DNA of 64,000 nt from Minisyncoccia bacterium (lineage in GTDB: Bacteria > Patescibacteriota > Minisyncoccia > Phycocordibacterales > UBA2100): contig JBAQUX010000023.1 of the NCBI GenBank assembly GCA_049297775.1, positions 18 to 64,017 of the forward strand, written 5' to 3'. A model generated the notes under the pieces. It worked only from the letters and a program-made list of their open reading frames with translations, had not been told where the DNA came from and searched no databases. The translations under genes were made by a program, and so were the position numbers. This document shows, piece by piece, positions 2,725 to 58,917 of the stretch (position 1 is the first letter of the stretch; every line of letters begins with the position of its first letter).

Positions 2725-3114
2725 CTATTTTTGCCAGCCAAGCACCACTTGCTCAATTTTACTCACCATCTCATCTGGGAGTGACTGCGCCTTAATGAAC
2801 TGTCCCGCGACTTTTAAGTCTTTCATTCGAGCAAAATCTTCTGGCTCACTTTGGTTAGAGAGCACAATTATTGGAAGCCCTTCCGCAAGGTGTTCATCTC
2901 GAAGCGTTTTGATGAACTCAAATCCATTCATCTGAGGCATAATTATATCAGCGACTATTATATCTACTCTGAGTCCACCTCGTAATTTTTCTAACGCAAC
3001 CTTAGCGCTCTGACATGGAACCACCACATGCCCTCTCTCAAGGATTTTTGTTGCATAAATATCAACAATGAATTCATCGTCATCGAGAAACAGTATAGTA
3101 AATTTTTTATCCAT
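2725..3114 (-). CDS. Single-domain response regulator (REC/CheY-like receiver only)
   Basis: 129 aa. Acidic pocket LFLDDDE, phospho-acceptor Asp in IIVADIIMP, conserved T/S and K positions of receiver domains. No output domain. Embedded between pilB and pilT. Confidence 0.8.
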   Translation of the reverse strand: MDKKFTILFLDDDEFIVDIYATKILERGHVVVPCQSAKVALEKLRGGLRVDIIVADIIMPQMNGFEFIKTLRDEHLAEGLPIIVLSNQSEPEDFARMKDLKVAGQFIKAQSLPDEMVSKIEQVVLGWQK

Positions 3115-3115
3115 A

Positions 3116-4888
3116 TTATTTATTTTTTTCCTCTTGTAGCGCTACTTCTTCAGCCAGGAGCACTCCACCCAATGTGCTAATCTCCGAAAACGGAATCACT
3201 TTATTGAACGCTTTCAGCATAGCATCTTCACGCATGGTGAGCATACCCTTACTGCGAATAATCTTAAGAATTTCGTCATCACCTTTTCTGTCCAAAATTG
3301 CACGCTCAACTTCGGCACTCATTCCAAATGCCTCGATAACTGCACTTCGTCCTCGCATTCCTGACGCTGACGCAGACGTTGGCTGTGGGTCGTACACAAC
3401 ATTTGGAATAGTGAAACGATATTCTGGCGGTAAATCCTTAATTGAATCTTCCATAAATAAACGCATGCTTGGTGTAACTGGTATTTCTGTTCCAGTTCCT
3501 GGGTGCAATTTACGCACCAATCGCTGTGCCACCGCAAGAATTAATGTTGGCGCAATAAGATAGGGATCAACACCCATATCTATAAGACGAGGAATAACGC
3601 CGACAGAATCGTTTGTGTGAATAGTTGAGAGTACCAAGTGACCAGTAAGCGCGGCTTGAATTGCGAGCTTTGCAGTTTCTGCGTCACGGATTTCTCCCAC
3701 CATGATAATGTCTGGGTCTTGGCGAAGCGCAGTACGCAAACCAGAGGCAAATGTATACCCAATTTCTGGACGCATTTGGGATTGATTAACTCCTTCCATG
3801 TGATACTCAACCGGGTCTTCAAGCGACATCACGTTTTCTGATTCACGATCAAGCTCATTTAACATCGAATACAATGTGGTTGACTTACCGGAACCCGTTG
3901 GACCAGAAACGAGAATAAGGCCATACGGTCTTTCGAGTGCTGTGCGAATGAGATTAAGATTTTTTTGTGAGAGACCGAGGTCAGCGAGCGGTACCACGCC
4001 TTTATTTTTATCCAAGATACGCATCACCACCTTCTCACCTTCTGGTAGTGGAAATGTAGAGACACGAAAGTCAATTTTTCTTCCGCTCACCGTTGCTGAA
4101 AATCTACCATCTTGCGGTTTTCGTCGTTCGTCAAGCCTCAGTGCTGCCAAAACTTTAATACGCGCCACGATTGCCTGTTGTGTATTTTTGGGAAGCATCA
4201 GACTTGTATGCAACGTACCGTCAACACGAAAACGCACACGCACACCCGCCTCGCTTGGCTCTATATGTACGTCAGATGCAGAACCATCTACTGCGTAGCG
4301 CAACACTGTTGCGACGATTTTTATTATCGGTGCATCCTCTTGAAAGTTTTTTGCATCCTTTGGTCCTTGTGCTTGCTTATCAAGTTCGGCCTGAACGTCA
4401 ACTTGGTCACTTGACGCCTCGGTCGCCAATTCATCGAGCGCGTTCCCGACATCTCCAGTAAGCCCTCGATACATGGCGAGCACTTTTTCAAAATCTGCCT
4501 TAGTTATATGAAAAACTTTGTACGGCAAGCCAGCCTTACGGGTAATAAAGTTAAGTGCGTCTACTGCCTCAATGTCATCAGGACTCACAAAACCCACTTC
4601 GAGCACCCCATCTTCAATTCCGAGCGCAACAAACTTATAGTGATTTGCTGATTCTTCTGGAATATTTTGCAAAATTTGCAACGCAATTTTACTATCACCT
4701 ATAGTACGAGTTGGGATACGAACACTGCCACCCTGCTCTGCAGCTAATATTTCTTCATCAGAAAAACCGCGATTACGGAGAGCTGTATCGATATCTATTT
4801 TTTTGGACTCAACCTCTGACCGTACTTCTTCGGCAACTTTGGGTGATATAAGTCCTTGAGCAATAAGTATTGAGAGCGGGTCTTCCAT
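3116..4888 (-). CDS. pilB: Type IV pilus assembly (extension) ATPase PilB/GspE family
   Basis: 590 aa with N-terminal GSPII_E_N-like region. Walker A GPTGSGKSTT, Asp box, Walker B MVGEIRD, His box of secretion ATPases. Confidence 0.9.
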   Translation of the reverse strand: MEDPLSILIAQGLISPKVAEEVRSEVESKKIDIDTALRNRGFSDEEILAAEQGGSVRIPTRTIGDSKIALQILQNIPEESANHYKFVALGIEDGVLEVGFVSPDDIEAVDALNFITRKAGLPYKVFHITKADFEKVLAMYRGLTGDVGNALDELATEASSDQVDVQAELDKQAQGPKDAKNFQEDAPIIKIVATVLRYAVDGSASDVHIEPSEAGVRVRFRVDGTLHTSLMLPKNTQQAIVARIKVLAALRLDERRKPQDGRFSATVSGRKIDFRVSTFPLPEGEKVVMRILDKNKGVVPLADLGLSQKNLNLIRTALERPYGLILVSGPTGSGKSTTLYSMLNELDRESENVMSLEDPVEYHMEGVNQSQMRPEIGYTFASGLRTALRQDPDIIMVGEIRDAETAKLAIQAALTGHLVLSTIHTNDSVGVIPRLIDMGVDPYLIAPTLILAVAQRLVRKLHPGTGTEIPVTPSMRLFMEDSIKDLPPEYRFTIPNVVYDPQPTSASASGMRGRSAVIEAFGMSAEVERAILDRKGDDEILKIIRSKGMLTMREDAMLKAFNKVIPFSEISTLGGVLLAEEVALQEEKNK

Positions 4889-11691: not shown

Positions 11692-12231
11692 CTATTCCTT
11701 TAAAAAATTTTTGAGTGCTTCGAATGGTTTTATACGCAAATATGTATCACGGTCATCTTTCTCTCCGAGTGACGCCCGTGTGGCTGTATACCCTTCTGGA
11801 ATAAAAATCCTATCCCAGCCGTATCCGTGCGCGCCTTCAGGTATACGTGCAATAGTCCCCTGCATACTCCCTTCAAATAAGCGTAACGTAGTGCCATCAT
11901 AGTATCCCATGACACATCGCGCAGTTGCAGTACGCGCATCATTACCCACTAGTGTGCACAATTTTTCAAGCGGCATTTGTTCAAGAAAAAATCTAATGAA
12001 CGGACCAGGAAGCCCGCCGAGCGCATCATATTCAAGGGATACATCCTCTACGAGCACAGGAGATTGAAGAATATCGTATGCTTGGCGCACCTTATGTTCT
12101 ACAATGTCACGAACCGAGAGTGACTGAATTTCGTCGAGGTCAATCTTTTGGTGCGACACAGGTACACCCAAATACTTTGCCAGATACTCTGCTTTGTGTA
12201 CATTTCCAGTGACAAATGTTACCTCCTTCAT
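11692..12231 (-). CDS. rdgB: Non-canonical purine NTP pyrophosphatase (RdgB/Ham1 family, ITPase)
   Basis: MKEVTFVTGNVHKAEY...VLVEDVSL...GGLPGP...RIKPFEALK are Ham1 family motifs. Start at MKEVTF (12231). Confidence 0.8.
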   Translation of the reverse strand: MKEVTFVTGNVHKAEYLAKYLGVPVSHQKIDLDEIQSLSVRDIVEHKVRQAYDILQSPVLVEDVSLEYDALGGLPGPFIRFFLEQMPLEKLCTLVGNDARTATARCVMGYYDGTTLRLFEGSMQGTIARIPEGAHGYGWDRIFIPEGYTATRASLGEKDDRDTYLRIKPFEALKNFLKE

Positions 12232-12300
12232 GCACGTAGCATACACAAAAAACCTGCAGTACGCAGGTTTTTTGTGTATCACACTCTAAACAAACAGCGA

Positions 12301-12729
12301 CTACAGCGTCGTTCCGTCTTCCATCTGCAATGATTGCTTGAACTGCTCAATAACTTCTGGATGCTTCCCTGCTTTACAGTCTACAAGATACGCATCGGAT
12401 GCAGCACCGTCAGTAAACGTAGTAAATGCAAGCGAATCGTCACAAATCTGGTTGATATCAAGCTTCATTCCGACAGGAGCTTCTTCAACTTGTTCATACT
12501 TTGGCTGATTATTATCCATATCAAACGACCCATTCTTCATGCCAGAAAACAATGCCCCACTAATTAGAAACGCGAAAAGTGCAATAAAAGGAATATAGAG
12601 AATGAGACTTCCCACAAATGAGTACCCGAGCACTCCAAGGGCACGCTTTATAAATGAATCACTATTTAACCACCCTTTGTAACTATATGTCTCACCTACC
12701 GGTTGTGCATTTTCTGGATTCATACTCAT
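12301..12729 (-). CDS. Hypothetical membrane protein
   Basis: 142 aa, two predicted TM helices (LILYIPFIALFAFLISGALF). No recognisable domain. Confidence 0.4.
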   Translation of the reverse strand: MSMNPENAQPVGETYSYKGWLNSDSFIKRALGVLGYSFVGSLILYIPFIALFAFLISGALFSGMKNGSFDMDNNQPKYEQVEEAPVGMKLDINQICDDSLAFTTFTDGAASDAYLVDCKAGKHPEVIEQFKQSLQMEDGTTL

Positions 12730-37188: not shown

Positions 37189-39156
37189 TTACGAAACAAT
37201 ATCTTGCGGTGTCTGTTCCAAGACTTTCTTCTCTTTTAAGACAATGCCATGTGCTGATACTACTTTTTCATACTCTTCTCTCTCAAGTGTTTCTACTTCT
37301 ATGAGCTTATTTGCCACCGCATCAAGTGCACTGCGGTATTTGATGATGGTGTCTTCTGCACGCTGTAATTGCTCACTAATTATCTTCTTTACTTCTGCAT
37401 CAATGACACTACTTACCTGCTCAGAATATTCACGTGAGGTGTAACTACCTCCAATGATACGTCCGCCATCGTCTATGAGTGCAATAGGACCGATGACATC
37501 TGACATACCCCAGCGAGTCACCATGCTCCGTGCAAGACTTGAAGATACAGCGAGGTCATGTGACGGACCAGTAGTGAGGTCGTCAAAAATCATCTTCTCT
37601 GTCACATAGCCTCCGAGTGACACAGCGATATCATCAAGAAATTCCTTCTTAGATTGCATCTTTTTATCTTCGTCTGGCAACTTCCAGGTATATCCCGCCG
37701 CACGTCCACGGCTAATGATAGATACTTTGTGCACTGGGTCTGCGTACTCTAATACTGAGGCAATAATTGCGTGACCTGCTTCATGGTATGCTGTGATGCG
37801 CTTCTCTGCCGTGTTCATTACATGACTCTTGCGTTCAGGACCGAGCATTACTTTCTCGATAGATTTAATAAGGTCATCTTGAAGTACCTCTTTTCTATTC
37901 TCACGAGCTGCAAGGAGCGCCGCTTCGTTCATTAAGTTTGCAAGATCAGCACCTGAAAATCCTGGCGTGCGCTTTGCAATTTCTGGCAGGTGTACATCAC
38001 TTGCGAGTGGTTTCTTTTTTGAATGTACCACAAGAATTTCTTCGCGCTCACCTCTGTCTGGCGGATCGATGGTGACACGTCTATCAAATCTACCTGGGCG
38101 CAAGAGTGCGGGATCAAGCACATCTGAACGGTTTGTTGCTGCCATCACGATTACTTTTTCTGTAGGATTAAAGCCGTCCATCTCTACAAGAATCTGGTTT
38201 AATGTTTGCTCTCGCTCATCATTTCCGCCACCCATGCCCGTACCGCGTGTTCGCCCAACCGCATCAATCTCATCAACAAACACGATTGATGGTGCCATCT
38301 TTTTTGCAATATCGAACAAGTCGCGCACACGAGATGCGCCGACACCTACAAACATTTCTACGAATTCAGAACCAGAGATTGAGAAGAATGGCACACCTGC
38401 CTCTCCTGCAACCGCACGGGCAAGAAGCGTCTTTCCGGTACCAGGACTTCCCATCAACATGACGCCCTTTGGAATCTTTGCGCCCATATCCAAAAACTTT
38501 TGCGGGCTCTTCAAGAAATCTACAATTTCTGACAACTCTTGCTTTGCTTCTTTTGCGCCGGCAACATCAGCAAAAGTAACTCGGTTCGCTTCATCGTTTG
38601 GATCTATCATACGCGCACGTGACTGCCCAAAAGAGAATGCCTGCATACCTACACCTTTTACTTGTCGCGTAAAGAACCATAAACCAAAAAGAATAATGAG
38701 GAGCGGACCAAAGAGTGGCGCGAGTGCACCAAGCCAGTATTTAAAACCTGTAGGCTCGGCTACTTCAATTGGCACAGAACGTAAATCTTCAGGAGTCGCA
38801 CCGTAGTTTTTAAGTGTCTCAGTAATCCCACTTTCATTCTCTTTCTTCGAATGCTTAATTACTTCTTCCTTGTCTTTTCCGTACGAAACATCAACGCGCT
38901 CCCCTCGTACTACAATTTTACTTACCTTCTTATCAGTAATATCTGTCGCAAGTTGTGAGAGTGTTACCTGTTCTGGGGTTTTAAATGCATCGCGCACCGT
39001 CGTATAACCACCGAGGAGTACGAGAAATATCATGATGGTAAGTACCACCTGAATACCGAACTGCTGATTTACACCAAGGTTATCCATTATTTTTTTTGGA
39101 CCGCCCGGCGTTTTCTTTTCTTTCTTCTTTTCTGGTTTTGTATGTTTTTCCGTCAT
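37189..39156 (-). CDS. ftsH: ATP-dependent zinc metalloprotease FtsH
   Basis: Two N-terminal TM helices, AAA Walker [24 protein letters not shown], Walker [12 protein letters not shown]. Zn-binding HEAGHAI and peptidase M41 C-terminal domain. Confidence 0.92.
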
Positions 39157-39199
39157 GCGGAATAGTATACATGATGAGCCCTAAAAATACATGAAGATA

Positions 39200-39520
39200 T
39201 TTTGGGTATAAAAATTGCCCGACAGCGGTGAGGCTGACGGGCGGTGAGCAACGGAGAGGGGTTCCGCTACTCTGCGGGCTTGGGTTTCGCCAAGAGATTT
39301 ACTCCCGAGACCGGAACACACTCTTCGACATGTTTCGTGATATCACGGAACAGGTCAGCGAGGCCTTCATGGGTCATCGTGAGACTGATGGGAATACGCA
39401 CCCGCACAAGGAGGACAGCCGGAGCGGTCCTCGCTTTCTTTGTGACTACATAACGTGGCTTAAGCACAGGTATTGTCATGGTGACTCCCTTCTCCTCATG
39501 CTTAAAGTATTTCTACAGAA
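39200..39520. ncRNA. Candidate structured non-coding RNA or leader (GC-rich island; identity unresolved)
   Basis: About 320 nt non-coding gap in a dense genome. Local GC is clearly above flanks. Multiple stable hairpins: CCCGACAGC-GGTGAG-GCTGACGGG at 39218-39241 with an A5/T5 flank (terminator-like on the minus strand), CTTGG-GTTTCG-CCAAG, GAGGAC-AGCCGGAGCG-GTCCTC. The only ORF here (39228-39587) has no homolog-like features. Confidence 0.3.
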
Positions 39521-39583
39521 ATTTTACGTAAAATGCAAGCTTTTCCGGTTATTTTTAGGACGAGCTGTGGTACTATCCTACCT

Positions 39584-40471
39584 ATGAAACCAATATCCAT
39601 AGTCACACATAGTGGTACATTCCACGCAGATGATGTATTTGCAGTCGCCATGGTGAAGCTACTCTTAAAGGAAACACCACACACACTCACTCGTACACGT
39701 GACGAAGCGATACTACACAGCGCCGATTGGTTACTCGACATTGGTAACACCTATAACCCTGAAACCAAACGATTCGACCATCATATGCGAGAAGGAGCAG
39801 GGGCACGTGAGAACGGTATTCCCTATGCAGCCTGCGGTCTGGTATGGAAGCACTACGGAGAAACACTTGCGGGAAGCCCTGAAGCGCAGGAGATTGTAGA
39901 CACGGAACTCATTCAGACCATTGATGCACTTGATAACGGCTCGCATGCAGTTTCATTTAATCCGCATCTCGGCGATAGTCCGTACACCATTCGCACACTC
40001 ATCCAGCGGTCTTTCAGACCTGCGTGGAACTCCACTGAGAGCTTTGATGAGGCATTTGATAAAGCGGTTACGTACGCACAAGAGATTTTACTCCGAGAAA
40101 TACACCAAGCGTCAAGCAGTATCGCGAAACGTGCATATGCAAAAAAACTCTATGATGAGAGTGCTGATAAACGTATACTTATAAGCCCGATTGGCATTTC
40201 AGCAGGTTCATTTATTCCCTTTCCTGAAGTCAACGTAGTAATCGCACCAGACCTCTCGCGTGACGGATACTATGCAGTGCAGGCAGTGGGTGTAAGTCCT
40301 GATACCTTTGATGCGCGCGTCTACTTCCCTGAAAGCTGGGCCGGCCTTCGCGATGACGCGCTCGTGCAACACACAGGTATCGCAGGTTCTGTGTTTTGCC
40401 ACAAAGGTAGACACTTTGCAGTTGCAAATAACTTAAAGGACGCACAGCGTCTTGCACTGCTTGCAAAGTAA
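39584..40471 (+). CDS. MYG1/UPF0160 family metal-dependent hydrolase
   Basis: N-terminal IVTHSGTFHADDVFAVAMV (family signature THSGxFHADE), further His/Asp blocks (DHH, LDNGSH). Start at MKPISIV (39584) rather than the ORF-track 39533. Confidence 0.75.
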   Translation: MKPISIVTHSGTFHADDVFAVAMVKLLLKETPHTLTRTRDEAILHSADWLLDIGNTYNPETKRFDHHMREGAGARENGIPYAACGLVWKHYGETLAGSPEAQEIVDTELIQTIDALDNGSHAVSFNPHLGDSPYTIRTLIQRSFRPAWNSTESFDEAFDKAVTYAQEILLREIHQASSSIAKRAYAKKLYDESADKRILISPIGISAGSFIPFPEVNVVIAPDLSRDGYYAVQAVGVSPDTFDARVYFPESWAGLRDDALVQHTGIAGSVFCHKGRHFAVANNLKDAQRLALLAK

Positions 40472-40497
40472 GCGTGCCAGTTTGCTATACTAGGCAC

Positions 40498-40938
40498 ATG
40501 TCCATATTGGAGAATAAAAAAGCGCGACTCAACTATACATTTCTCGATACTTTCGAGGCAGGCATTGAACTGCACGGTCATGAAGTAAAATCATTGCGTG
40601 ATGGCAAAGGTAAACTTGATGGCGCACGTGTGGTTGTGCGCGGTGGCGAAGCGTACGTAGTAGGTATGTCTATTTCTCCATGGCAAGTGGCAAACACTCC
40701 TAAGGATTACGAGCCCGAACGCACGAGAAGACTCCTTTTGCACACAAAAGAAATTCTTGCCATTCAGCGTGCGGAGCAAGAGCAAGGTTTGACAGCTATC
40801 CCTATTTCATTGTATAATAAAAAACGATTCTTGAAGCTTTCCGTGGTTATCGCAAAGGGTAAGAAAAAGCATGACAAGCGTGCTAGTATTCGCGAACGAG
40901 AAGTGGCTCGCGATATCAATCGTTCTTTGAAAAGTTAA
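40498..40938 (+). CDS. smpB: SsrA-binding protein SmpB
   Basis: NKKARLNYTFLDTFEAGIELHGHEVKSLRDGK...LLLHTKEI...KGKKKHDKR is colinear with E. coli SmpB ([32 protein letters not shown]...GKKQHDKR). Start MSILENK (40498). Confidence 0.9.
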   Translation: MSILENKKARLNYTFLDTFEAGIELHGHEVKSLRDGKGKLDGARVVVRGGEAYVVGMSISPWQVANTPKDYEPERTRRLLLHTKEILAIQRAEQEQGLTAIPISLYNKKRFLKLSVVIAKGKKKHDKRASIREREVARDINRSLKS

Positions 40939-40986: not shown

Positions 40987-41402
40987 GGGGGTGACTAGTA
41001 TCGACAGAGAGATTCGGTTTTCGTATGTGCACAGGTGTTTGAACATACACTCAAAAGTTCACAATCTAAGTGCAAAAAATTCTGCACAGGCAGTCGCTTC
41101 ATCTTTCAAGGTGAGCGACTTCCAGTTCGCTTACGCTCGCGCGTAGTCTGAAATTTTTTAATTTCAGGTGAGCTTCGGCTCGCGACCGTTATCTTGGTGG
41201 ACGTCTGATAAGCCACGGATAATGTAATACTATCGGAATCGATATACTGCCCTGTTCACGCAGTAGTCTAAATAATAGAACTCGCGTACTACGATTTTGC
41301 ATACCTTTGCCCGTAGTCCGTTAAACATTAAGGTACGCTACCTGTTGTAGATGCGTACGGAAATCCTCTTTTGGACTGGGGTGCGACTCCCCACACCTCC
41401 AC
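40987..41402 (+). ncRNA. ssrA: tmRNA (ssrA), one-piece
   Basis: 5' end GGGGGTGACTAGTATCGACAGAG matches tmRNA consensus GGGGnUGAnnnnGnnUCGACnnG. 3' end GGGG-TGCGACT-CCCC T-arm followed by CACCTCC-A-C. 5' GGGGGTG pairs with 3' CACCUCC, giving a G3-U70 wobble (Ala identity). Candidate tag ORF after CAGUC: GCU UCA UCU UUC AAG GUG AGC GAC UUC CAG UUC GCU UAC GCU CGC GCG UAG (ASSFKVSDFQFAYARA*). Immediately downstream of smpB. Confidence 0.8.
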
Positions 41403-41415
41403 ACATACATAACAA

Positions 41416-41436
41416 GGCGCCCTTATGGGCGCTTTT
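41416..41436 (+). terminator. ssrA terminator hairpin GGCGCCC-TTAT-GGGCGC + TTTTGTTG, centre of a longer inverted repeat
   Basis: GC stem + U-tract 14 nt after the tmRNA 3' end. Flanked by a ~21-23-bp imperfect IR (41393-41415 vs 41435-41455). Confidence 0.65.
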
Positions 41437-41657
41437 GTTGTATGTGTGGAGGTGTAGCGAGGCATCTGCATGCCTCGCATGGGGAGTCGCAAGGCGGAGC
41501 TATGTTTTTGTTTGTGTAATCACAAGGCAAAAACTGCGAGCTGGGGTCGCGAGATTTTTTCGTCAGAAAAAATACTTGTGACCGACTCAGCTTCGAAATG
41601 TATGGGCAAAAGACTTGGTTACTTGTTGCCCTTTTTTCCCCTGATATACTCCCTTTC

Positions 41658-54781: not shown

Positions 54782-55126
54782 ATGGTACGAGTAAAAGGAG
54801 GAATGCATGCACTGAAGAGACGCCGAAACGTCTTGAAGTCTGTAAAGGGGTATCGTCTCCAACGATCAAAGAAGGAGCGCGCAGCAAAGGATGCAATCCG
54901 ACACGCGGGTAATTACGCATTTAGAGACCGAAAGACAAACAAGCGTAATTTCCGCCAGATGTGGACTGTGCGCATTAACGCCGGTGTTCGCGCACTTGGT
55001 GTGAAGAGTTACAGTGTGTTCATAGACATGCTCAAGAAGAAGAATATTGCCCTTGATAGAAAAGTAATGTCAGAGATGGCAAAAGACTACCCTACAGCTT
55101 TCGAACGATTAGTTAAATCTCTCTAG
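54782..55126 (+). CDS. rplT: 50S ribosomal protein L20
   Basis: MVRVKGGMHALKRRRNVLK...KGYRLQRSK...FRDRKTNKRNFRQMWTVRINAGVRALG matches L20. Confidence 0.9.
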   Translation: MVRVKGGMHALKRRRNVLKSVKGYRLQRSKKERAAKDAIRHAGNYAFRDRKTNKRNFRQMWTVRINAGVRALGVKSYSVFIDMLKKKNIALDRKVMSEMAKDYPTAFERLVKSL

Positions 55127-58098: not shown

Positions 58099-58677
58099 TT
58101 AATTTTTAGTAGTAATACGTCCTAACCAATAGGCGAGCACTGCCCCTCCCGCATCCATACAAATATCCTTCCCGGTATCAAGAGTAAAAAATATATTGCT
58201 TTTATATACAATTTCAAACACCTCCCAGACCAAACCCACCACAAGAACGATGAATATCATCGCCCACAATGGAAACTCAGGAATAGTATTCGGGATAAGT
58301 ACGTTGATCATGTCCTTCCCTATTAAAATACCCAGACCTGTCGCGAGTCCGCCGAGGAAATGCGTCACCATATTCAAAAGTATATCGATGGGCATATTGT
58401 AATAGCGCATTTCGAGCTGCACCATTGCATACGTACACATAAGCGTTGCAGAGCATAGTACGATGCGTAAAATCATATATACAGTATAGCATTCTGTATT
58501 AGAAAATAGCACCTGCAAAAAAATGACGACGTAAACAAAATGCCTCACGATGAGGCATACTGTTAACTGGGGGCATTCCTGGAAAATCCAGGTGGGTGGC
58601 CGCAGTGGAGTACCAAGGTACCACACGATATGGGCCTCCCTATATATTGAATACGAGGAAATACCCCACAGCTTCAA
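58099..58677 (-). CDS. Hypothetical membrane protein (start uncertain; likely internal Met near 58473)
   Basis: C-terminal ~125 aa has 3-4 TM helices (LGGLATGLGILIG; LWAMIFIVLVVGLVWEVFEIV). The upstream 60 aa overlap a structured putative terminator/promoter region and are probably not translated. Confidence 0.35.
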   Translation of the reverse strand: MKLWGISSYSIYREAHIVWYLGTPLRPPTWIFQECPQLTVCLIVRHFVYVVIFLQVLFSNTECYTVYMILRIVLCSATLMCTYAMVQLEMRYYNMPIDILLNMVTHFLGGLATGLGILIGKDMINVLIPNTIPEFPLWAMIFIVLVVGLVWEVFEIVYKSNIFFTLDTGKDICMDAGGAVLAYWLGRITTKN

Positions 58678-58704
58678 TTAGTATATCACAGAGGGATGTT
58701 GGTA

Positions 58705-58917
58705 CTACTTTTTAAATGAATCTTTTTGACTCCCACCTTTGCCATCCTTTTTTTCCTGCACCGTTTTTACTGCTACACCACCAAACGCAATGAGTACAAT
58801 AAAACTAATTATGTAGAGAGAGAATGGTACATGTATTCCCTTTCCTTGTTCCGCCCTAAAGGAGACCGTGTCTGATTGTGGTGCGAGTCCTGCAGAAAAT
58901 TCATTTACTTTGTCCAT
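58705..58917 (-). CDS. Small membrane protein, hypothetical
   Basis: 70 aa, one TM helix (IISFIVLIAFGGVAV), Lys-rich C-terminus. Confidence 0.3.
   Translation of the reverse strand: MDKVNEFSAGLAPQSDTVSFRAEQGKGIHVPFSLYIISFIVLIAFGGVAVKTVQEKKDGKGGSQKDSFKK

Follow-up and report, generated by a model that had tools for sequence, protein, structure and literature searches.

Gene layout and signals between ftsH and MYG1

The window, meaning the whole 64-kb stretch of DNA that was analysed, carries ftsH as a minus-strand ORF at 37189–39156, with matches to Peptidase_M41, AAA and FtsH_ext, and MYG1 on the plus strand. MYG1 has its true start at 39584 and encodes 295 aa, with the same gene call in L001–L004, four further assemblies of this organism; beyond it lie smpB (40474–40938) and then the tmRNA gene (40987–41404). 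The divergent starts of ftsH (39156, minus strand) and MYG1 (39584, plus strand) are ~427 nt apart, and the sequence between them has a GC content of 0.53–0.55 compared with 0.44 for the window as a whole. A sequence-only reading had described this stretch as a ~320-nt non-coding gap of elevated GC. The GC content was confirmed, with peaks as high also present inside ordinary genes of the window, but the gap is occupied: it holds a 70-codon minus-strand ORF at 39267–39479 which was already in GenBank.

This ORF runs from an ATG at 39479 to a TAG included in the above coordinates, and its product is a 70-aa orphan protein (MTIPVLKPRY...AKPKPAE) that carries MTIPVLKPRYVVTK... The feature is an orphan small gene, annotated before as a hypothetical protein; its GenBank entry, from a CPR/Patescibacteria MAG, reads "hypothetical protein WAX38_03530 [Minisyncoccia bacterium]", and essentially identical DNA is found in four further contigs, one from an NCBI assembly and three from Logan assemblies. 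GC1, GC2 and GC3 are 0.62, 0.41 and 0.56, a gene-like order of GC1 over GC2 with GC3 raised, and the GC excess that had been noticed stems largely from the GC-rich third codon positions of the ORF. Because frames other than 39479..39267 are also open across the GC-rich stretch, the length of the ORF by itself proves nothing. Within the ORF, at 39331–39352, lies a near-perfect palindrome of 18–22 bp, TTCCGTGATATCACGAAA, with a GATATC core, which makes both strands read 'FRDIT'. A role for it as an operator was ruled out, as it is not kept in the close relative L018 (see below).

Upstream of the ATG, on the minus strand, a putative −35 box TTGCAT (39533–39538) is followed after 17 nt by a putative −10 box TAGAAA (39510–39515) preceded by TG, both read from sequence and conservation. 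A generic sigma-70 promoter scan called no promoter at the locus. A Shine-Dalgarno-like leader, GGAGAAGGGAG, occupies 39485–39495 and ends 5 nt before the ATG, in the layout AGGAGAAGGGAG-N5-ATG; its motif GCAYRAGGAGAARGGAGG occurs a single time in the window.

At the other end of the ORF, two hairpins follow one another on the minus strand. The first is a predicted 10-bp hairpin spanning the stop codon, GAGUAGCGGA-ACCCCUC-UCCGUUGCUC (39246–39272). The second, for which the sequence-only reading had given 39218–39241, is present as 39242..39217 with the sequence GCCCGUCAGC-CUCACC-GCUGUCGGGC, and is followed by the run AAUUUUUAU (39216..39208), which ends ~50 nt before the ftsH ATG. A GC-rich stem-loop, a U-run directly after it and a position downstream of a stop codon are all in place, and we predict that the hairpin at 39217–39242 is a good intrinsic terminator. 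It was missed by a simple terminator scan, presumably on account of its internal mismatch. In L018 the terminator hairpin is kept, with changes limited to a single mismatch position in the stem and a single base in the run; the stop-codon hairpin is also present there, with its 5′ arm and loop changed and its register different.

The strong hairpins attributed to the region are evident in folding calculations, where their contribution is confined largely to the 3′ end. The 86-nt 3′ segment that contains both hairpins folds with a z-score of −7.1 relative to dinucleotide shuffles; across the whole 376 nt the minus strand scores −5.2 and the plus strand −3.1. Once both 3′ hairpins are left out, the stability of the remaining ORF body exceeds chance only modestly (z −2.8 for the window and −2.0 for L018), and values of −2.8 or lower are reached by ~5.6% of 284 equally long windows across the 64 kb. 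For the ORF body, the window and L018 yield different predicted folds; in this one informative pair only the two 3′ hairpins persist, and the expectation that structure would be conserved across homologous intergenic regions was not sustained for the body. By eye, the sequence-only reading had found no match to RNase P RNA, SRP RNA, 6S RNA or common riboswitch cores, and this held: Rfam at gathering score returned only the tmRNA and three tRNAs in the whole window, with no match in 39100–39620, and the best match there in a relaxed search (E up to 10) was sX13, whose 17.6 bits (E 0.52) fall short of its threshold of 50. Elsewhere in the window, a 213-nt scan gave unusually stable predicted folds at 58501–58713 (minus strand, z −5.9) and 12151–12363 (plus strand, z −4.9). 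Long nested inverted repeats are also present right after the tmRNA 3′ end (41405–41500, and 41401–41613; z about −6 on both strands), and these are probably the tmRNA terminator.

Small ORFs ahead of ftsH in related genomes

The lineage is thinly sampled, with MYG1 homologue identities falling from 89% and 72% directly to 48%. The most informative relative, L018, came from the 90% cluster that contains the window FtsH, as did L019 and L020, the three being independent assemblies. In L018 a small ORF precedes ftsH at 2709–2888, with the same start position (GTG), nearly the same stop position and a length of 59 aa. Gene callers had left it uncalled in L018, and also in L019 and L020, and had stretched MYG1 on the opposite strand to 356 aa across it (1718–2788 in L018); this MYG1 extension is an annotation artefact that hides the small gene. 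Similarity of L018 to the window breaks off precisely at the 3′ end of the tmRNA (window position 41403). Beyond that point L018 carries a DUF5677 gene, which suggests that the tmRNA gene was the site of an insertion or replacement. A more distant relative, L005 (72% MYG1 identity), has the promoter and Shine-Dalgarno sequence in the same place as the window, followed by an ORF with a similar start (MLPVFKW compared with MTIPVLKP) which extends for more than 101 aa before it is cut by the contig end. In a profile-profile comparison the L005 ORF matched the window profile at E 0.069, which is suggestive only.

A scan of metagenomes and genomes with the FtsH N-terminus gave at least three usable relatives (L011, L012 and L013) among the matches listed, and a sister clade represented by L011, L013, L015, L016 and L017 has FtsH N-termini 73–77% identical to that of the window. 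The gene order in this clade is smpB (minus strand), ORF A, ORF B, ftsH, with ORF A encoding 72–73 aa and ORF B 75–80 aa; small ORFs before ftsH lie at 336–578 in L011, at 2200–2421 and 2572–2799 in L013, and at 3001–3219 and 3374–3604 in L017. ORF A and ORF B are paralogues (hhalign probability 92.8%, E 4e-7), and both are under purifying selection, with dN/dS of ~0.14–0.34. Between L013 and L015, the closest pair, dS of ORF A and ORF B is 0.39 and 0.13 compared with 0.58 for ftsH, so that the small ORFs evolve in step with their neighbour and not faster. The L017 contig of this clade also carries a reverse-transcriptase gene (120–1511; RVT_1, 463 aa), ~850 nt from smpB.

Nine leaders were aligned, comprising those of the window, L018, L005, three copies of ORF A and three of ORF B. 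All share the same series of blocks: CTTGCA at −35, ~17 nt, TAGAA or TACAA at −10, ~10 nt, GCACAGGAGAA(A)GGAGG, 5–8 nt and ATG, with the Shine-Dalgarno-like leader kept in 9 of 9. The −35 box is preserved as (C)TTGCA in L018, L005 and L006 and in the sister-clade ORF A and ORF B leaders. For the −10 box, the plus-strand complement TTCTACAG is invariant among the window, L005, L006 and L018, and the sister-clade equivalents are TAGAAC for ORF A and TACAAA or TAAAAA for ORF B. At the other end, folding of six 3′ ends of ORF A and ORF B (from L011, L013 and L017) gave in each a predicted hairpin that spans or abuts the stop codon, with a strong putative terminator and its U-run behind it. GC3 of all small ORFs before ftsH is 0.52–0.74, compared with 0.39–0.45 in neighbouring genes; expression level, mRNA stability or biased gene conversion may be responsible for the raised GC3 and the stop-region hairpin.

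Position and promoter/leader thus match ORF A and ORF B, with synteny of smpB, MYG1 where present, small ORF(s) and ftsH and with leader blocks in common, and the window ORF is very probably the positional counterpart of the ORF A/B cassettes. The resemblance takes in place, the ftsH strand, a size of 59–80 aa, the leader CTTGCA...TAGAA/TACAA...GCACAGGAGAAAGGAGG...ATG, a stop-codon hairpin followed by a terminator, raised GC3, and predicted strands followed by helices. In contrast to the sister clade, the clade of the window has one copy instead of two, its predicted protein seems to lack one helix, and there is no significant protein similarity: the window ORF, or a two-sequence profile built with L018, matched ORF A and ORF B in hhalign at E 0.49–0.72 with a probability of ~0.1%.

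The strong Shine-Dalgarno sequence of the small gene is unusual in a genome otherwise poor in such sequences. Among ATG ORFs of at least 150 aa in the window, 1 of 55 has an SD-like motif at −18 to −6; SD-led exceptions in the window include the small ORF and a gene at 54803–55126 that we take, by eye, to resemble rplT (bL20). Many window genes instead have a TATACT-like box ending ~5–8 nt before the ATG, which suggests that initiation in this genome is mostly leaderless or SD-independent; a search of the literature on leaderless translation in CPR found nothing relevant. MYG1 follows this layout, with a putative −10 box TACTAT at 39571–39576 (plus strand), 7 nt before its ATG at 39584, which is kept as TAGTAT in L005 and TACTAT in L006. 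So does ftsH: a putative −10 box TATACT (39169..39164) precedes its ATG at 39156 by 7 nt, with no SD, and 39157–39169 on the minus strand would constitute a leaderless start. The same layout is found before many window genes and before ftsH in L013.

These start signals bear on a possible role of the region as an ftsH regulatory leader, in which the small ORF would encode a leader peptide, the hairpin at 39217–39242 would act as an attenuator, and read-through would set ftsH expression. The arrangement invites such a view, since the ORF lies directly upstream of ftsH on the same strand, its terminator is ~50 nt from the ftsH ATG, in both clades that strand invariably carries one or two small ORFs ahead of ftsH, and a stop codon placed inside a hairpin could couple translation to folding. 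However, ftsH has its own TATACT box and no SD, so that a read-through mRNA would offer an internal start lacking a ribosome-binding site, and a separate ftsH promoter is likelier than attenuation by the upstream terminator. The long GC-rich stem and U-run are typical of efficient stops, and no conserved pairing that competes with the terminator was noticed when folds and alignment were read by eye; one 6-nt candidate pairing in the window ORF (GCUGAC, also found by eye) is replaced in L018. Leader peptides are, moreover, usually much shorter than 59–80 aa. We regard an ftsH leader, which the sequence-only reading had also raised, as improbable, although partial read-through into ftsH may occur.

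Coding signature and divergence relative to L018

The small ORF was compared with its L018 counterpart using simple Nei-Gojobori counts on what is one informative allele pair. The two proteins are 55% identical over 58 positions (alignment z-score 10.3 relative to shuffles), and tblastn between them gives E 2e-7. Net length differences between the ORFs are 15, 9 and 9 nt, all in frame, and differences at codon positions 1, 2 and 3 number 26, 19 and 34; pS exceeds pN (0.635 compared with 0.392; Fisher p 0.008). To keep the frame test free of protein bias, it was run on a nucleotide-only MAFFT alignment. In the ORF frame, the best of the six, 48% of amino acids are retained, and 14 of the 44 codons that changed did so synonymously. 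The four out-of-phase frames retain 22–31%, and the mirror antisense frame, which shares third positions with the ORF frame, 42%. The MAFFT alignment shows promoter and terminator nearly unchanged between L018 and the window, the leader and SD region recognisably kept with several changes, and the body 58% identical. The retained frame, start and stop, the synonymous excess and the in-frame length differences together constitute a coding signature.

These substitutions are difficult to reconcile with a structured non-coding RNA transcribed from the minus strand (~39505..39210) and acting as RNA, with the ORF incidental. In its favour are the strong fold of the 376 nt and especially of its 3′ part, the raised GC, the placement of the ORF-body z-score of −2.8 in the 5% tail of the window, and database searches that returned no protein homologues. 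Yet the two 3′ hairpins account for the greater part of the fold signal, Rfam has no match, the body is 58% identical to L018 with predicted folds that differ, the GC excess sits in third codon positions with the usual order of GC1 over GC2, and the changes are those of a protein, falling most often at third positions with pS above pN, in-frame lengths and the same start and stop. A functional RNA of this kind is very improbable. The sequence-only reading had proposed the 3′ end of a minus-strand ncRNA; the strand and the 3′ end of a short transcript are supported, and its non-coding nature is not, given the coding signature against L018.

Outside the small ORF, L018 and the window are close: blastn identity is 96.5% on the ftsH side, 94.9% on the MYG1/smpB side and 99.4% in the tmRNA. 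Matches stop at 39252 and resume at 39462, leaving a divergence island at 39253–39461 that is ~58% identical (island compared with flanks, Fisher p 2e-52). Nei-Gojobori estimates for the surrounding genes are dS 0.16 and dN 0.001 for ftsH, 0.12 and 0.008 for the NUDIX gene, 0.20 and 0.009 for MYG1, and 0.14 and 0.013 for smpB, compared with dS 1.4–2.0 and dN 0.55–0.61 for the small ORF, where synonymous sites are saturated and dN/dS is accordingly rough. Silent divergence of the small ORF is ~10 times that of the genes around it, and neither in-place drift nor relaxed constraint can explain the island. As each allele is found in several independent assemblies, the island is not an assembly artefact. 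Samples SRR28011841, SRR28011690 and SRR28011830 carry one allele, and SRR22372511, ERZ2855122 and ERZ27314162 the other.

The same numbers weigh on the notion of a spurious or decaying frame in a fast-evolving spacer, called because the stretch is GC-rich and stop-poor: although the ORF is an orphan in protein searches, other frames are open and it is uncalled in the L018 relatives with their extended MYG1, a body dS of ~1.4–2 far above the neutral level of the flanks (0.12–0.20) is not simple spacer drift, and with frame, start and stop kept, 55% amino acid compared with 58% nucleotide identity, pN below pS, and a conserved promoter, rare strong SD and terminator that bracket exactly this ORF, such an origin is hardly credible.

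Most likely, judging from the contrast in silent divergence, an old divergent allele was set between young flanks by homologous recombination. A diversity-generating retroelement target was considered as another source of variation and judged unlikely: indels and substitutions at every base type separate the alleles, and the 64-kb window contains no other copy of the region that could act as template. Since the average dN/dS of the small ORF is below 1, positive selection is not demonstrated.

Based on these comparisons, the region appears to be a protein-coding small gene with its terminator and not an ncRNA, a reading to which we assign a probability of roughly 0.8. The best explanation of the locus, and a likely one, is a self-contained transcription unit at 39208–39538 on the minus strand that encodes a small lineage-restricted protein. 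A sigma-70-like promoter, TTGCAT-N17-TAGAAA, would start a minus-strand transcript of ~290 nt, on which a leader of ~25 nt with a strong Shine-Dalgarno sequence would direct translation of the 70-codon ORF. The stop-codon hairpin, and after it the GC-rich hairpin with its U-run, would end the transcript ~50 nt before ftsH, which would have a promoter of its own and probably yield a leaderless mRNA. The body of the small ORF would be an old allele exchanged by homologous recombination and not mutated in place. Promoter use, transcript ends and terminator function are here deduced from sequence motifs and their conservation. In a CPR genome, a "gap" rich in GC and hairpins can thus be an unrecognised small gene plus terminator, in this instance one that encodes an orphan protein with an allele far older than the surrounding genome.

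The protein product and comparison with known systems

Homologues of the window protein were sought in a word-index search of 5.8 billion proteins and in a full HMMER search of 1.84 billion representatives, and both returned the query alone; the L018 allele is the sole protein homologue found. Pfam, NCBIfam and PADLOC gave nothing for the window ORF, and searches against PHROGs and PDB sequences gave only matches at E 0.045 or worse, the best being PHROGs of unknown function (E 0.045–0.058) and a designed coiled coil (E 0.054). Nothing significant was obtained for the L018 allele, the L005 ORF or ORFs A and B in Pfam, NCBIfam, PHROGs, PADLOC or PDB sequences. A single-sequence AlphaFold model of the window protein, with a beta-hairpin and one helix, is poor (pLDDT 56), which makes its fold search meaningless. 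The ORF A model is fair (pLDDT 79), with three strands and two helices; its fold search found no significant neighbour (best PDB match E 0.22, best viral match E 0.09), with weak recurrent matches to RiPP-recognition-element-like domains and a chloroplast 30S protein. The predicted pI differs strongly between the two alleles (9.9 and 5.8), and no obvious signal peptide or membrane segment was seen by eye in the window protein. Our best guess is a soluble small protein, with a beta-hairpin and one helix, that works through binding to a partner.

Given its conserved position beside ftsH, the window protein is possibly linked with FtsH, and the small gene might point to small partners of this protease. 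Small protein modulators of FtsH include CIII of phage lambda and SpoVM of B. subtilis. Unlike these, the window protein has no sequence or fold similarity that we found and adjacency is its sole link to FtsH; it resembles them in being a small protein, encoded beside ftsH, with a predicted amphipathic helix.

The predicted terminator conforms in most respects to Rho-independent terminators, with a GC-rich 10-position stem (one internal mismatch), a 6-nt loop and a U-run, located just past a stop codon. It departs from them in that a second hairpin with no U-run lies ahead of it at the window locus, overlapping the stop codon, and in that the U-run in the window is short and interrupted (AAUUUUUAU).

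A broader proposal is that the small ORFs before ftsH form one fast-evolving cassette family whose bodies are repeatedly replaced by within-species recombination. We consider this unlikely. If true, it would be a sign of frequency-dependent or diversifying selection; the product might then be a strain-specific binder, such as an FtsH modulator or decoy substrate, or might take part in the interaction of these episymbiotic CPR bacteria with hosts or phages, and the raised GC3 would be a footprint of frequent gene conversion. Should the pattern of an allele far older than its surroundings recur as further alleles become known, the locus would offer a compact system in which to study recombination-driven small-protein diversification in uncultured Patescibacteria.

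Hyper-divergent alleles between conserved flanks are familiar from pherotype, bacteriocin-immunity and surface-antigen loci, where they arise by homologous-recombination replacement. Compared with these, the present locus offers two alleles and a possible third, longer one in L005; no partner gene such as a toxin, kinase or transporter adjoins the window ORF, inspection of its product by eye showed neither an obvious signal peptide nor a membrane segment, and the average dN/dS of the small ORF is below 1. What it has in common with them is the sharp borders of the island, an allele dS ~10 times that of the flanks, and the presence of both alleles in several assemblies.
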